A DNA stretch of 64,000 bases from Eubacteriales bacterium (GCA_045595165.1 JAZNZY010000017.1:6689-70688); one strand, 5' to 3'. Counted from the stretch's first letter, positions 35,403 to 40,273 are shown. Made by a program: numbers and translations. Notes: generated from the sequence alone by a model not told the origin.

Positions 35403-35870
35403 ATGGTATACAGAAAAGCTTTAAAATCAGATTGCTTATTTATTTCCGAATGTTTAAAGGATATTCTTTCTCTTCATGCAAAAGGCAGGGCAGACATATT
35501 TAAAAATTGCGGCGGAAAATATACAGCAGATGATATAGAAAAAATGCTGAATGAAAAGGATATTCATATCTTTGTTGCAGAAGAGTCCGGCGAAAAACTC
35601 GGCTATGCAATTTGTTATTATAAAGAGATCAAAAACGATCCGGTTTTAAAGGATCGCGTTATCTTTTATCTTGACGATCTGTACGTTCTTCCCGCCACCC
35701 GCGGAAAAGGCGCAGGAAACGGATTTATGGAATATCTGTTTGCTTATGCCAAAGATCTGGGTTGCGATTCCTTTGAACTCAACGTCTGGAATTTTGACGG
35801 CAGCGCCACCGGCTTTTACAAAAAATGCGGTATGACCACTCAAAAGCAAATAATGGAAAAGAAATTGTAA
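35403..35870 (+). CDS. GNAT family N-acetyltransferase
   Basis: Acetyl-CoA motif LYVLPATRGKGAGNGFMEY; 155 aa. Confidence 0.85.
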   Translation: MVYRKALKSDCLFISECLKDILSLHAKGRADIFKNCGGKYTADDIEKMLNEKDIHIFVAEESGEKLGYAICYYKEIKNDPVLKDRVIFYLDDLYVLPATRGKGAGNGFMEYLFAYAKDLGCDSFELNVWNFDGSATGFYKKCGMTTQKQIMEKKL

Positions 35871-35883
35871 TACAAACATTAAA

Positions 35884-35910
35884 GCTCGGGCATTTGTCCG
35901 AGCCTTTGTT
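35884..35910. terminator. Hairpin terminator between convergent genes
   Basis: GCTCGG/CCGAGC stem with an 8-nt loop, then CTTTGTTCTT. Confidence 0.5.
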
Positions 35911-35911
35911 C

Positions 35912-37024
35912 TTATTGCGTGAATGTTTCGATTATATATAAAAACTGAACTGCCCAGAAAGTTAACTCGCACCAAATTGAAGTATCTTTTTTGTGGTCCG
36001 GTTCCAATCCAATTTCTACATAAGGATGCGCGCTTCTAAAATTGTCTTTGAAACGACTTTTTTGATACGATGATTCAAAGGTGGTTCTTAATACCCCGTC
36101 ATACGAAAGCATCTCTTTTAATGTTATTACTGAATCTTTAACGACTTTTGATTTATCGCCGCACACCATTGCAAGTGCAGTCAAAGTCTTGCGTTGATTC
36201 GGTGCTTTTTGAGGGAATGATAAAGGCAAAAATGGTTGCATATATGCCCAACCCGGACCGACTTGTTTACCGTTTATCTTTACAGCAAAACCGACCCAAT
36301 CTTTAGTTATACGATCATGATGATCAATAGCTGCGGCAAGACGGTTTATCTTCTCCTTGGTACGCCAACTTTGTGTGTTAGCCAAGGTTTCCAAATGATA
36401 CTGACACGGAAAATAGGTATCAGGTGAAATCGTAGGATAGTTGTATTTTCGCTTTAAGTCTGGATTATAGGTCGTAATCTCATTTGGAGCCTCATAATCA
36501 AGTAAACTCACAAAAGCGTTATACGAAGCATCAACAAAATGTTTCATTTCAGGGTCGTCTCCACAGCCAAGTAACGCTTGACAAGCATACAACACAACAT
36601 CAAGCGTTGAACCGCTGTTAATGCCGAGGCTTCTTGTTGCATAACGAACCTTTTCCGGGTTGTAATATGAAAACTCTTTTTCCAAAACTTTATCATCGCG
36701 CATAGCTTTGACAAAATTTTTAACAATAGGAGTGTCTTTGGGAATCGCATAGTTGTGCAGAAGCCTTGCAGCGTTTTCGCCGTCATCTAAATGGGAGGAC
36801 TTGAATTTCTCCCAAGAATGCATACCAATACCGATATAACCGTTAGGTTTAACATGCGTCAAAAGAAGTTGATAATCTGGAGTTTGTTTTACTCTTTCAA
36901 GAAGTTTTTCTTCTTCGTTTTCAGACAAATCCCGAAGAATTTCCTTGTGTAAACGGTATTGTATAACATCTCTGCCGTTTTCGAGCAGAAAATTAATTGA
37001 TTTAGAATACTTATCTCTGAACAT
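35912..37024 (-). CDS. Unknown-function protein, paralog B of the cassette (370 aa, predicted all-helical)
   Basis: AAGGAGA RBS. Shares N-terminal (INFLLENGRDVIQYRLHKEIL), central (LANTQSWRTKEK) and C-terminal blocks with the upstream gene. Confidence 0.75.
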   Translation of the reverse strand: MFRDKYSKSINFLLENGRDVIQYRLHKEILRDLSENEEEKLLERVKQTPDYQLLLTHVKPNGYIGIGMHSWEKFKSSHLDDGENAARLLHNYAIPKDTPIVKNFVKAMRDDKVLEKEFSYYNPEKVRYATRSLGINSGSTLDVVLYACQALLGCGDDPEMKHFVDASYNAFVSLLDYEAPNEITTYNPDLKRKYNYPTISPDTYFPCQYHLETLANTQSWRTKEKINRLAAAIDHHDRITKDWVGFAVKINGKQVGPGWAYMQPFLPLSFPQKAPNQRKTLTALAMVCGDKSKVVKDSVITLKEMLSYDGVLRTTFESSYQKSRFKDNFRSAHPYVEIGLEPDHKKDTSIWCELTFWAVQFLYIIETFTQ

Positions 37025-37033
37025 TTTTTCTCC

Positions 37034-38080
37034 TTAATCAACCACATTCCAAACAGCCCGTAACAAAGCATAAGTCAGGTCGCATTTTGCGGCTGAACGT
37101 TTTCTGTAATTAGGTTCTTTACCTGATACTTTCCGAAATGCATTGAAAACTCTGTCGGGGATAACATCGACGTTATCCTCTTTTTCGAGAAAGTCTGCCA
37201 AGACAAAATATGTTTCATCCGATTGGCGAACCCAATCGGGAACGCCTGATACAGCGCCAAGCCAAAAAGCAAATTGGAAGTTGTACGGATCGTTAATTAT
37301 TTGATATAGCTTCTCCTCGTCAATTGGCTTCAACGCTTTCCAGTTGTAATTGAACGGACCGACACAACTGCCGCCGAATTCTTTCGGTTTCTTGAAGGTG
37401 ATGAACTCGTCAAAATCTTTCATCATTTCATAGGCGTGTTTCATTGCAACTTTTGCAATCTTCATCCGTTCCTCGCTTCGCCAGCTATGCGTTGCATTTA
37501 GCAGACCGATATGATTAGCGCCGGGGAAGCGGGCAAATGGTTTATAATATCTCTCGTTTTTTCCTTTCTTTGTAAAATCATCAACAGATTTGTAACCGGA
37601 AACGGCTTCAACGTGTTCCCAAGAAAGTGCTATTTGTTCAGCCAGAATCGGATAGCTTTCATCATAGCCAACCCAAGAAAGAATAGAAGCGATGATAGCA
37701 TTGTTTCCACCACGCCCTTCCGCATCCAATCCGTCGCCGCCATGAAACCAATTTTTATGTTTTGAAGCAATTTCCGGCGTTATAAGTGCGTGTATTCCTT
37801 TTTGAATAGCCGTATGCTCTTTCTCGATACCTGCGTTCAAAAGCGTGCCTATAGATCGCTCCATACCGTATTCACCGCCGTGCAACTCTTCGCCGAACCA
37901 GCCGTCGGGATGTTGGCAAGCAAGGTGTTTTTTAATATTTTCTTGTTCCAATATCTCGCTTCGCATTTTTTGCATGAACGGTTCTGATAAAGGTGTTTTA
38001 ATAAAATCGCGATGGACAAGAAATTTAATGCTTGTGCAAGCGTTTTCGGTAAGAAAGTCTATATGCTTTTGAAACTTCAT
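37034..38080 (-). CDS. Unknown-function protein, paralog A of the cassette (348 aa, QxxDGW-type repeat hint of an alpha/alpha-toroid fold)
   Basis: Start at ATG 38080 (GGAGA RBS, 2 nt after the upstream stop). CQHPDGWFGEE motif. IDFLTENACTSIKFLVHRDFI is similar to paralog B. Confidence 0.75.
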   Translation of the reverse strand: MKFQKHIDFLTENACTSIKFLVHRDFIKTPLSEPFMQKMRSEILEQENIKKHLACQHPDGWFGEELHGGEYGMERSIGTLLNAGIEKEHTAIQKGIHALITPEIASKHKNWFHGGDGLDAEGRGGNNAIIASILSWVGYDESYPILAEQIALSWEHVEAVSGYKSVDDFTKKGKNERYYKPFARFPGANHIGLLNATHSWRSEERMKIAKVAMKHAYEMMKDFDEFITFKKPKEFGGSCVGPFNYNWKALKPIDEEKLYQIINDPYNFQFAFWLGAVSGVPDWVRQSDETYFVLADFLEKEDNVDVIPDRVFNAFRKVSGKEPNYRKRSAAKCDLTYALLRAVWNVVD

Positions 38081-38082
38081 TT

Positions 38083-38586
38083 TTATTTCTCCACAAAATA
38101 GCAATAATCCAGAATAATTTTTCCGTTTTCGTCCGGGGTAGTGTATCTCGGGCAGAGGCAGTTTTCGAATGACCAAGTTCCTCCGTTTTTATCTTTCCAA
38201 ATCACCATACCGTTTTTAACCAATTCAGGTTTGCACGCCGAGGTATCGTGAATATCAGCTTCATAACCGTATATCCAACAAGTGCCTAAAGATAATCCGT
38301 CGAAATCCTTATGTTCAAAACCGTCTGGAACAGGAGTTTCGGCAGGTGTAAACATACCGATCCAATATTCAAATTCGGATTCCGGAGACCGATGCTCAAG
38401 ACCAACATATCCACCGCCGTTTTCCCAAATGTTAAGTATAGCATCTGTTCCGCCCATCGTTTTTTCAAGAATTCCAAACCAATCGTTAGCCCAGAATTCA
38501 TCCCAATGACCAAACTCTCCGTACTTCTTGCCTATAAAGCGCATATTCGGGATTTTTTCTTTGAATACTTTTTTGATCTCTGCCAT
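38083..38586 (-). CDS. Stand-alone GyrI-like / effector-binding domain protein
   Basis: 167 aa. The pattern MRFIGKKY..WDEFW..FEYWIGMF..VPDGFE is typical of AraC-type effector-binding (GyrI/Cass2-like) domains. Confidence 0.65.
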   Translation of the reverse strand: MAEIKKVFKEKIPNMRFIGKKYGEFGHWDEFWANDWFGILEKTMGGTDAILNIWENGGGYVGLEHRSPESEFEYWIGMFTPAETPVPDGFEHKDFDGLSLGTCWIYGYEADIHDTSACKPELVKNGMVIWKDKNGGTWSFENCLCPRYTTPDENGKIILDYCYFVEK

Positions 38587-38588
38587 TT

Positions 38589-39419
38589 TTAATTCTCCTT
38601 AATTAACGGAACGTAGATATGCTCCGAATATTCTTTGCTTGATTCCATATATGATTCGAGTTCATAAGCGTCTTTTCGTTTATAACCGCTTGTTGGAAGC
38701 CAAACGGTGTTTATCCATTCCCAGGTTTTACGTATAGTATCTACGAAATCATATTGGTTAGCAGGAACGGTTTGAAAAACAGCATAGAGCCCGCCCTCTA
38801 TCTCGATTTCTATGGTAGTGTCGACGTCTCCTTTTGCGAGTTCTGTTGGAATCCCGATATAGTATTCAAGACAATTTTTGTTTTTGTTCCATCTCATTAC
38901 ACCGAAATCTTCGGTTAAAATGCCTCCGGAAAGTGTCAGCGAACGTTTTTCAGTATTATACTTGTTCCAGCAATTCGGCGGAAAAGTATCACCGAAATTA
39001 TATGCTGTCAAGACAAAACCTTCAATAAATTTCATAGCAACTACAGGAACGGGGTAAGTCTTCTCAAATTCAAATGGCTCAAACAGACGTAAACTGCAGT
39101 TTGCTTTTTTAAATTCGGTCGGCAGTATATTGTGTTCGGATTTAAATGCCCGCGTAAAGTTTTCCTTGGAATTGAAGCCGTATTCAAAAGCTATATCTGA
39201 AACCGGTCTGTTACCGCCAATACGTTTAACTATTTCGGAAATTCGCCGTTTTCGTATGTAATCAGCGGGAGTTAAACCAACGAACTCTTTAAAAACTCGC
39301 AAAAAATGAAATTCAGAATAACCTGCAATTTTCGATAAAGAAGTAATATTAAGTTTTGTGTCGTCTTTCAAATGATTTTCAATATAATCTAAAACCCTTG
39401 AAATATTACTTTTCTTCAT
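38589..39419 (-). CDS. AraC family transcriptional regulator with a C-terminal GyrI-like effector-binding domain
   Basis: Two HTH units (SLSKIAGYSEFHFLRVFKEFVGLTPADYIRKRR; IAFEYGFNSKENFTRAFKSEHNILPTEF) plus a ~150-aa C-terminal domain. Confidence 0.88.
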   Translation of the reverse strand: MKKSNISRVLDYIENHLKDDTKLNITSLSKIAGYSEFHFLRVFKEFVGLTPADYIRKRRISEIVKRIGGNRPVSDIAFEYGFNSKENFTRAFKSEHNILPTEFKKANCSLRLFEPFEFEKTYPVPVVAMKFIEGFVLTAYNFGDTFPPNCWNKYNTEKRSLTLSGGILTEDFGVMRWNKNKNCLEYYIGIPTELAKGDVDTTIEIEIEGGLYAVFQTVPANQYDFVDTIRKTWEWINTVWLPTSGYKRKDAYELESYMESSKEYSEHIYVPLIKEN

Positions 39420-39503
39420 TTCCGCTCCATCGATAATTTATGAATGTCATTATAACACAAGAAAAAAGAATAGTATTGATAAAAATTGCGTTTATAAACA
39501 AAC

Positions 39504-39539
39504 AGCCTATGAATCATAAGAAATTCATAGGCTATTTTA
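39504..39539. terminator. Bidirectional hairpin terminator
   Basis: AGCCTATGAAT/ATTCATAGGCT 11-bp stem, T-rich on both sides. Confidence 0.75.
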
Positions 39540-39550
39540 TGTTTAATTAA

Positions 39551-40273
39551 TTAACCGTTGTAAGCGTCTTTATCGCAGATAAGTACAACGTCGGGGTGAA
39601 CCTTGAGCAGGGTAGCGGGGCACTGGGTAGTGATGCGGTCATCCTGCATCTTAACGATAACGTTGTGCTTGCCCTTGCCGCTTGCAAGAACGATGATCTT
39701 CTTTGCCTGCATAATGGAGCCGATACCCATTGTAACTGCCTGGGTGGGAACGTCTGCCTTAGAAGCAAAGAAACGGGAGTTAGCTTCGATAGTGCTGTCG
39801 GTAAGACCGGTGAGGTGGGTACCAACGTAAAGCTCTTCTTCGGGTTCGTTAAAGGCGATATGTCCGTTGGGGCCGAGACCGAGAACCTGAAGGTCGATAC
39901 CGCCTGCAGCCTTAATAGCTTCGTCATAAGCCTTACCCATAGCCGCGGGATCTTCTGCAAGACCGTCGGGCACGTTGGTGTTAGCCTTGTCGATATCTAT
40001 GTGATCGAACAGATTGTGGTTCATAAAGTAACGGTAGCTCTGATCGTGATCGGGAGCCAGGGGATAATATTCGTCAAGGTTATAAGAAGTAACGTCCTTA
40101 AAGGTGATTTCGCCTGCTTTGTTCATAGCAGAAAGGCACTTGTACATACCTACGGGAGTAGAACCGGTAGCAAGACCGAGTACGCAGGAAGGGTTAGCCT
40201 TTACGGTTTCCGCAATTATCTCTGCGCCCGCTTTGGACATTTCTTCGTAGTTTTCGCAAACAATAATTTTCAT
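39551..40273 (-). CDS. nagB: Glucosamine-6-phosphate deaminase
   Basis: LGLATGSTP, NLDEY and GLGPNGHIAFNEP motifs; 240 aa. Confidence 0.93.
   Translation of the reverse strand: MKIIVCENYEEMSKAGAEIIAETVKANPSCVLGLATGSTPVGMYKCLSAMNKAGEITFKDVTSYNLDEYYPLAPDHDQSYRYFMNHNLFDHIDIDKANTNVPDGLAEDPAAMGKAYDEAIKAAGGIDLQVLGLGPNGHIAFNEPEEELYVGTHLTGLTDSTIEANSRFFASKADVPTQAVTMGIGSIMQAKKIIVLASGKGKHNVIVKMQDDRITTQCPATLLKVHPDVVLICDKDAYNG

Follow-up and report, generated by a model that had tools for sequence, protein, structure and literature searches.

A Rob-like regulator, a putative marbox-like operator and three uncharacterised cargo proteins in an accessory operon of gut Clostridia: a candidate xenobiotic-response module

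What does a gut bacterium do with four tightly packed genes, when the first encodes a recognisable AraC-type regulator and the other three match no characterised family by sequence? This question is raised by positions 35912-39419 (minus strand) of a 64,000-nucleotide stretch of DNA from a Eubacteriales bacterium (GCA_045595165.1, JAZNZY010000017.1:6689-70688; the whole stretch is referred to below as the window), the host being an uncultured ruminant-gut Clostridia bacterium. An original prediction from the same sequence proposed a ligand-induced modification or resistance module. That remains the best reading of the locus, and it is one that we infer: we rate somewhat above an even chance the view that the four genes form a ligand-induced, autoregulated xenobiotic-response module.

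The locus is a minus-strand operon of four head-to-tail open reading frames (ORFs) with intergenic spacers of 2, 2 and 9 nt. Gene 1 (38589-39419) encodes a 276-residue Rob-like AraC/XylS activator, and gene 2 (38083-38586) a 167-residue protein that is an orphan by sequence and has a predicted GyrI-like fold. Genes 3 (37034-38080, with an ATG start) and 4 (35912-37024) encode paralogous helical orphans of 348 and 370 residues, which are probably α/α-toroid-like. Ribosome-binding sites precede genes 1 to 4 (GGAG, AAGGAG, GGAG and AAGGAG, respectively), so that the packing of four genes, each with its own GGAG-type site, was found as first described. The start of gene 3 was fixed at the ATG at 38080, because every homolog begins at an equivalent MKFQK-type N-terminus, and a longer TTG-started ORF in the ORF list was set aside. 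All four genes are under purifying selection, with ratios of nonsynonymous to synonymous substitution rates (dN/dS) of 0.02-0.14 against three related genomes (0.08-0.14 for gene 1 and 0.02-0.04 for gene 3). Because of the short spacers, the ribosome-binding sites, a promoter and terminator of its own and this selection, we take the operon to be a real observation.

The product of gene 1 had been described as an AraC regulator carrying a GyrI-like effector domain, and both domains score above their Pfam cut-offs. The double helix-turn-helix (HTH) region matches HTH_18 (E = 2.4e-19; 69.8 bits, cut-off 33.6) and HTH_AraC (1.4e-13), and the C-terminal domain (residues 147-272) matches both PF06445, GyrI-like (5.4e-12; 46.7 bits, cut-off 26), and PF14526, Cass2 (6.2e-13; 49.7 bits, cut-off 27). 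When the PDB was searched by sequence, the best full-length solved relative was STM3175 (7r3w), at 5e-14 over residues 5-268. MarA (1e-15, HTH region only) and Rob (8e-14) were also found, and the MarA, Rob and SoxS structures match the double HTH at 1e-15 to 4e-12. Orthology to Escherichia coli Rob was not borne out, the NCBIfam RobA models giving 86 and 74 bits versus cut-offs of 380 and 426. By sequence, gene 1 belongs with the AraC/XylS activators: its double HTH is N-terminal, its GyrI-like/Cass2 domain is C-terminal, and the architecture is Rob-like without orthology to Rob.

A candidate binding site for this regulator came from alignment of the regions upstream of regulator genes, from which an almost invariant 14-mer, GCAATTTTTATCAA, emerged. 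Its sole good (exact) site in the window is at 39476-39489 (minus strand), immediately beside the -35 position. In the promoter that it adjoins, an extended -10 element, TGTTATAAT, can be read at 39449-39457 (minus strand) and a good -35 hexamer is absent. This placement, beside -35 where the hexamer itself is missing, is reminiscent of overlapping (class II-type) activator sites. The fetched loci (3.14 Mb, named below by L numbers) contained the 14-mer, with no more than one mismatch, at 52 sites, 45 of which lay just upstream of an AraC/GyrI gene (43 by script, and those of L175 and L176 by position). It ended exactly 21 nt before a TATAAT-like -10 hexamer in 33/40 promoters, with no conservation of the spacer sequence, and in orthologous loci a TGnTATAAT or TATAAT-like element recurred at this fixed distance from the operator, usually with the TGn extension. 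Scanning the operator-N21-TATAAT pattern against 185,579 species genomes returned 90 stretches, and the counts that follow are from the 80 that were read. The first downstream gene was an AraC/GyrI gene in about 53 of these 80, and the gene after the regulator was a relative of gene 2 (the 167-residue family) in 24 and a member of another orphan family of about 300 residues in 14; a relative of genes 3 and 4 followed in several. The marbox consensus AYnGCACnnWnnRYYAAAY (PMC3709825) specifies 12 positions, and GCAATTTTTATCAA agrees with it at 10 of them. We regard it as a putative marbox-like operator, to which the product of gene 1 would bind.

The unit that is conserved among these genomes is the regulator, the operator and a variable first cargo gene, from either the 167-residue family or the family of about 300 residues. 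The latter (MKKLNITWDG..TGYLFSFAKSL..SGFAFRMW) has no Pfam or PDB match, and in 14 genomes it supplies the cargo gene that comes first after this regulator and operator (L261, at 853-1749 as counted from the promoter match; L259, L281, L282, L284, L290, L291, L297, L299, L303, L310, L314, L322 and L325). At L152:5970, a near-exact operator, GCAATTTTTATCAG, stands directly before a 167-residue gene with no adjoining regulator gene, which suggests that control is exerted in trans in some genomes.

The original prediction called gene 2 a stand-alone GyrI-like protein. Searches of Pfam and NCBIfam (E <= 0.1-1), PADLOC and the PDB, including a PDB search with a profile of 42 sequences, found nothing, and comparison of the gene 2 family with the regulator's own GyrI domain by hhalign gave a probability of 0.3%, with no profile-profile likeness. 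The likeness appears at the level of predicted structure. The AlphaFold (AF2) model, with a mean local confidence (pLDDT) of 93.6 and a predicted template modelling score (pTM) of 0.88, consists of two beta-beta-alpha-alpha-beta-beta halves, which agrees with the duplicated beta-alpha-beta-beta (SHS2) fold, with its pseudo-symmetric ligand cleft, that characterises the GyrI-like superfamily. A Foldseek search of the PDB with this model gave 26 matches at E < 1e-3, and ranks 1-46 were all GyrI-like/SOUL structures. The best was BrlR-C (1.9e-6), and CTR107, SAV2435, BmrR, SbmC, CtaZ, STM3175, lin2189 and Rob were also present, with template modelling (TM) scores of about 0.45-0.55. Gene 2 as a divergent stand-alone GyrI-fold protein is supported, then, by a modelled fold and at the level of fold only.

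Members of the gene 2 family are well conserved (mean column identity 73%). Residues C143, C145, C162, H113, E109, E141 and R147 are invariant, as are many Trp, Tyr and Phe residues, and C103 and C118 are nearly so. We know of no described GyrI-like protein with this Cys set (C143, C145 and C162, together with C103 and C118), and to our knowledge a metal or redox site within a GyrI-like fold would be unusual. One relative, P0284, bears a C-terminal Cys-rich DUF3795 domain.

Genes 3 and 4 had been described as paralogs outside any characterised family, and this description held. Their products align over their full length by BLASTP (E = 9e-13, 20% identity), and the quoted motifs were located: the shared INFLLEN/IDFLTEN and T(Q/H)SWR, and also QHPDGW. 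All of the homologs (195 for gene 3 and 566 for gene 4) are named 'hypothetical' and none carries a Pfam domain; a joint profile run against 1.84 billion representatives found only 458 clusters (at 50% identity). By sequence this is a small, orphan family. Searches of Pfam, NCBIfam, PADLOC and the PDB with genes 3 and 4 gave nothing significant, and a Pfam scan gave no membership of Prenyltrans, SQHop_cyclase, GH88, GH8/9, LanC-like or other known families. When 53 diverse family members were scanned singly against Pfam (E <= 1), no family recurred, and there was a single match to SQHop_cyclase_N, at 0.18.

Likeness of genes 3 and 4 to α/α-toroid enzymes, which the original prediction had read from a QW-type motif, survives in a weak form. 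The best PDB profile match is to the squalene-hopene cyclase repeat, aligned at a Q-x-x-DG(W/Y)-x-G motif, with an E value of 0.35. The AF2 model of gene 4 (pLDDT 94.1) is all-helical and has about 16 helices; for the pair the number is about 14-16, and short beta-hairpins are also present. The solved structures nearest to the gene 4 model in Foldseek are of the (alpha/alpha)6 type: 3h7l (endoglucanase-related), glycoside hydrolase (GH) family 88, glucuronate dehydratase, drimenyl diphosphate synthase, macroglobulin thioester domains, farnesyltransferase and GH9. The best of these has an E value of 8.6e-3, with TM <= 0.37 and a root-mean-square deviation of 10-12 Å, and armadillo solenoids score similarly. 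An internal repeat was not significant when the family was compared with itself by hhalign (E = 0.075), and the gene 4 model had no match among viral structures in Foldseek. Genes 3 and 4 are orphan, helical proteins that are probably α/α-toroid-like on the modelled structure, and we call them toroid-like below.

Across the superfamily of genes 3 and 4, residues H69, L214 and W220 (gene 4 numbering) are invariant and G62, P206, E341, D353 and F356 nearly so. DxDD and DDxxD motifs and known catalytic residues are absent from both proteins, and the earlier designation of the paralogs as putative enzymes found nothing to back it. Two other relationships were considered and rejected: a DNA-binding role, given isoelectric points (pI) of 6.4-7.6 and the absence of AlkD-type HEAT glycosylases from the top 50 Foldseek matches, and a relation to LanC, considered for a loose H...W...C motif resemblance, no LanC structure being in the same top 50. 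None of the four proteins of the operon matched the anti-phage defence models of PADLOC. Two more orphan helical families, of about 306 and 330 residues and with Q/N-x-x-GG(F/W)G motifs, adjoin homologs of gene 4 (L011:12452-13372, L074, L078 and L067; L079:6912-7901, L084 and L094). The family of about 330 residues aligns weakly with the N-terminal motif of the toroid profile, so that the superfamily may exceed what HMMER detects.

Is the operon a fixed part of its surroundings? It is an accessory, self-contained operon of about 3.6 kb (about 35880-39503), and the slot that it occupies is variable, with the terminator of nagB (39551-40273, upstream of the operon) on one side and a convergent GNAT gene (35403-35870) on the other. 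Flanks with 89-98% protein identity to those of the window are present in three species-level relatives. In L175 and L176 the order is nagB, cassette, GNAT, GH2 and glyA, as in the window, and L177 has an empty site, in which the nagB terminator is followed by a 67-bp intergenic region and then by the 3' end of the GNAT gene. A scan of both strands for terminators found hairpins at 35881-35906 and 39504-39533 (both given on the minus strand), close to where two bounding terminators had been placed. The first is the operon's own, bidirectional and common to the operon and the convergent GNAT gene, and it is missing from the empty site in L177; the second belongs to nagB and lies outside the operon, at the left border of the insert. 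From the empty site it follows that the cassette is accessory and that its promoter and terminator come with the insert. In L180 the same nagB-GNAT slot holds an unrelated 375-residue ORF (L180:7346-8473, minus strand) with a HELMHG (HExxH-like) motif and no Pfam match, and the slot therefore looks like a hotspot of gene gain and loss.

Horizontal acquisition had been proposed from base composition. As the evidence for transfer, GC content was replaced by the empty-site comparison, which reveals a presence/absence polymorphism. The GC content of the cassette is 39.6% (36.8-42.5% for single genes, and 36% at third codon positions), compared with 42.8% for the window, 44.0% for GH2 and 49.2% for nagB. 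The cassette does lie below the window mean, at the 0.7th percentile among 3.5-kb windows of the same sequence, but the values first estimated were 35-37% for the cassette and 48-55% for the flanking genes, and the expected contrast of 12-18 points shrinks to about 3 points against the window mean. A classical mobile element was rejected, no flanking direct or inverted repeats and no recombinase being present in the insert. A possible imperfect direct repeat seen by eye at the insert junctions (TGTTTGT..TA..CAATTT) was also discarded, since it is AT-rich and the empty site does not match it. No plasmid or phage homologs were found for genes 2 and 4.

The associations of these genes in other genomes were followed in two samples, one of 80 species-level loci anchored on gene 4 and one of 78 anchored on the 167-residue gene. 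The full order of regulator, 167-, 348- and 370-residue genes is present in L017, L018, L025 and L051, and in L012 as far as the end of the contig, i.e., conservation of the four-gene order holds in about five closely related species-level genomes, and elsewhere the genes are single or shuffled. Related genomes carry shuffled sets with the 167-residue gene, the regulator and extra paralogs (a 354-residue 'p3' and a fourth type), to which the sets in L011, L024 and L030 add genes for an AlkZ-like DNA glycosylase and for NUDIX, cytidine deaminase-like, HD, P-loop kinase and PurN-like proteins. Homologs of gene 4 below about 65% identity mostly stand alone, or by GNAT, GrpB, alpha/beta hydrolase or DUF6273 genes. 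In the 167-anchored sample, 37/78 loci have an AraC/GyrI gene immediately upstream in the same orientation, and 9/78 have an adjacent toroid-like gene. These proportions argue that the regulator and the 167-residue gene are the conserved core and the toroid-like genes an add-on. Toroid-like genes have joined the regulator unit in the clade of the window (L012, L017, L018, L025 and L051), in Lachnospiraceae (L164/L312), in a Eubacterium metagenome-assembled genome (MAG; L056), in Defluviitaleaceae (L297) and in L309.

Three side observations concern the partners of these genes. In one MAG (L104:4290-5663) the regulator and the 167-residue protein are fused in frame in a single 458-codon ORF (...LPIRSHN-MAEIIKTFKE...), which may be either a Rosetta-stone sign of functional coupling or the result of a lost stop codon in that MAG. 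At L024:386-10830 there is a 13-gene same-strand operon of nucleotide- and DNA-repair flavour. It begins with the regulator, a toroid-like paralog, HD, P-loop kinase, AlkZ-like glycosylase, a second toroid-like paralog and a 126-residue ORF, and continues with a PurN-like formyltransferase, the gene 4 ortholog, the 167-residue gene, DUF3737, TauE and a xylose-isomerase-like TIM barrel. Finally, DUF6273 proteins adjoin distant homologs of gene 4 in 6/80 loci (L060, L062, L074, L078 and two more). As far as the titles of papers naming DUF6273 reveal, these concern mostly phages and targets of diversity-generating retroelements, and literature searches on the gene combination or on DUF6273 found no description of the protein families considered here.

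How, then, might the operon work? In the mechanism that we favour, the product of gene 1, a Rob/MarA-type AraC activator, would bind through its double HTH to GCAATTTTTATCAA, abutting the -35 position, and from there would activate a promoter that has an extended -10 element and no good -35. Its C-terminal GyrI-like domain would sense a small foreign molecule, probably hydrophobic or planar, and binding of this ligand would turn on the regulator's own transcript, the three cargo genes included. The product of gene 2 would bind (sequester) or hydrolyse the same compound, so protecting the cell and damping induction. The products of genes 3 and 4, cytoplasmic helical toroid-like proteins, may be enzymes or binders that target this compound or a related one.

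Counted in favour of a xenobiotic-response module are the anatomy of the operon, the domains of the regulator, the predicted fold of gene 2, the purifying selection on all four genes, the coupling of the regulator to the 167-residue gene, the conservation of the operator, the recruitment of toroid-like genes in separate lineages, and the empty site together with the different gene in the same slot of L180. To these are added the neighbours of family members elsewhere, whose types point to detoxification or repair (AlkZ-like glycosylase, NUDIX, cytidine deaminase-like, HD, GNAT, GrpB and alpha/beta hydrolase). Several points weigh on the other side. The operon contains no transporter or efflux pump, unlike classical mar/rob regulons. 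The GyrI-like assignment of gene 2 comes from a predicted structure with TM of about 0.5 and no sequence signal, and the assignment of a toroid fold is weak (TM 0.37, E = 8.6e-3 on a model). The small deviation in GC makes the compositional argument for acquisition a weak one. Most toroid-like members stand alone in unrelated contexts, and 69/78 of the 167-residue genes have no toroid-like neighbour; with contexts so scattered, co-transcription in this operon need not mean a shared substrate.

A bolder extension of the same idea, which we put forward tentatively and would not expect to hold, is that the Rob-like regulator and GCAATTTTTATCAA define an undescribed small-molecule stress regulon, widespread in gut Clostridia and with interchangeable cargo from three uncharacterised families, i.e., the Cys-rich GyrI-fold proteins of 167 residues, the proteins of about 300 residues and the helical toroid-like proteins. 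The last would be a new class of enzyme or binder that inactivates a gut xenobiotic or genotoxin, the latter option being included because toroid-like genes are co-operonic with AlkZ-like glycosylases.

The alternative that survives best, though we consider it unlikely, is that only the regulator and the 167-residue gene are a functional pair, with genes 3 and 4 as unrelated passengers behind a convenient promoter. It draws on the wide conservation of the pair beside the infrequent adjacency of toroid-like genes noted above, on the fact that most toroid-like genes are monocistronic or in varied operons, and on signs of separate histories within the cassette. Between the window and L175, the synonymous divergence (dS) is 0.28 for nagB, 0.34 for gene 1 and 0.28 for gene 2, versus 1.39 for gene 3 and saturation for gene 4. 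The segment 35912-38080, compared with L175:6214-8366, thus greatly exceeds genes 1 and 2 and the flanks (0.28-0.87) in dS, and we conclude that the toroid segment has been replaced by recombination in this pair. L017 has the reverse pattern, genes 3 and 4 being 86-89% identical to those of the window and genes 1 and 2 only 62-75%, so that the module of regulator and 167-residue gene and the module of toroid-like genes appear to recombine independently. However, toroid-like genes have been recruited repeatedly behind the regulator or beside the 167-residue gene, in differing orders, in an Oscillospirales-like clade, Lachnospiraceae, Eubacterium and Defluviitaleaceae. With single-copy families and genomes only a few Mb in size, two such families would be expected to meet far less often. 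Spacers of 2-9 nt also argue for co-translation of all four genes from one transcript.

More doubtful still is a narrower version of the xenobiotic-response module, in which the operon is a specific defence against natural products that alkylate or crosslink DNA. Gene 2 would then be a cyclopropanoid-type hydrolase, and the toroid-like proteins would work with AlkZ-like glycosylases and nucleotide-sanitising enzymes. Some GyrI-like proteins (YtkR7 and lin2189) do hydrolyse yatakemycin and CC-1065, the hallmark of this subfamily being, in lin2189, E157 and E185 with an aromatic cage of Y46, W85, W99, F154 and Y187 (PMC5684135), and lin2189 is among the structural matches of gene 2. In addition, toroid-like paralogs share operons with AlkZ-like (PF06224, 5.9e-31), NUDIX, cytidine deaminase-like, HD and P-loop kinase genes in L011, L024 and L030 and in the independent L095. 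AlkZ-like genes were present in these four loci of the gene 4-anchored sample, and in 0/78 of the 167-anchored and 0/74 of the other, GH2-anchored loci. Nevertheless, there is no AlkZ-like gene in or near this cassette, the association is confined to few loci, most of them of one clade, and the toroid-like proteins, with a pI of 6.4-7.6, bear no sign of DNA binding.

Carbohydrate processing, with genes 3 and 4 as new cytoplasmic (alpha/alpha)6 enzymes resembling glycoside hydrolases or lyases under a sugar-responsive regulator, is the least probable of these explanations: for all that the best Foldseek matches are 3h7l, GH88, glucuronate dehydratase and GH9, that GH2 and nagB flank the cassette, that a gene 3 homolog lies by GH2 in L004/L005 and that L008 and L001 have gene 4 homologs in the vicinity of GH78 or of sugar ABC transporters, those matches are weak (E >= 8.6e-3, TM <= 0.37) and are equalled by terpene cyclases, prenyltransferase and thioester domains, the adjacency to GH2 and nagB is incidental (nagB, GNAT and GH2 are retained in a close relative from which the cassette is absent, and in another the slot is taken by an unrelated gene), the effector domain of the regulator is GyrI-like and not the sugar-binding cupin of AraC, the operon lacks a transporter, kinase or isomerase, and the recurrent partners elsewhere are GNAT, GrpB, NUDIX and AlkZ-like genes, not carbohydrate-active enzymes.

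How much of the xenobiotic-response module is new? Its regulatory logic is already known, from drug-response circuits of the mar/rob and TipA kinds. As in Rob and MarA systems, an AraC-type double HTH is followed by a GyrI-like ligand domain, and a putative asymmetric operator, which spans about 14-19 bp, carries GCA...YCAA elements and agrees with 10 of 12 specified marbox positions, lies beside -35 in a promoter without a good -35. Unlike those systems, the regulator is no ortholog of Rob (86 bits versus 380) and stands first in the operon that it would itself control, the cargo consists of three orphan cytoplasmic proteins and not of efflux, porin or redox genes, and the host is a Gram-positive anaerobe. 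In Streptomyces, TipAL/TipAS is an autoregulated, drug-activated regulator whose promoter also yields a free ligand-binding protein that sequesters the inducer; TipA is of MerR type with a different ligand domain, and TipAS arises from the same gene by an internal start. The circuit logic is alike, whereas the binder in the present operon is a separate gene, unrelated in sequence.

Among single proteins, STM3175/YgiV (7r3w), a regulator of albicidin and cystobactamid resistance, shares the combination of HTH and GyrI-like domain, and its GyrI-like domain is reported to bind the antibiotic itself (PMC10414762). Protection by STM3175 comes from its own copy number and from drug binding; here, a separate predicted GyrI-fold protein and two more proteins are co-transcribed with the regulator. 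Stand-alone GyrI-like proteins (SbmC/GyrI, CTR107, SAV2435, CtaZ and lin2189/YtkR7) have a size like that of gene 2 (150-200 residues), and the gene 2 model aligns with them over its whole length (E = 1e-4 to 3e-3, TM 0.45-0.55), but gene 2 differs in its invariant Cys set and in having no detectable sequence likeness, even profile to profile. CtaZ is a precedent for sequestration of an antibiotic in anaerobic Clostridia (PMC9545259). For genes 3 and 4, the nearest comparison is with α/α-toroids (squalene-hopene cyclase/prenyltransferase repeats and six-hairpin enzymes of GH88/GH8 type), with which they share an all-helical make-up and a QW-type motif, and which are their top Foldseek matches, without any significant sequence or profile match (E = 0.35) and with TM <= 0.37. 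What is new is the operator-promoter architecture conserved across gut Clostridia, the putatively autoregulated operon with the regulator first, and three cargo families without a characterised member.

Gut Clostridia are constantly exposed to small molecules from plants, hosts and other microbes, and how uncultured lineages sense and neutralise them is hardly known. The locus provides a testable handle on this problem, with a defined regulator, an operator and promoter, and three cargo families, and the promoter could act as a biosensor to find the inducing compound. No concept is overturned, and the system would be conceptually surprising only if the toroid-like family had a new chemistry. 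If the cargo binds or modifies such a compound, several hundred 'hypothetical' proteins would gain their first functional context, and if the toroid-like family proves enzymatic it would be a new branch on a fold whose known chemistry concerns terpenes, glycans and thioethers.

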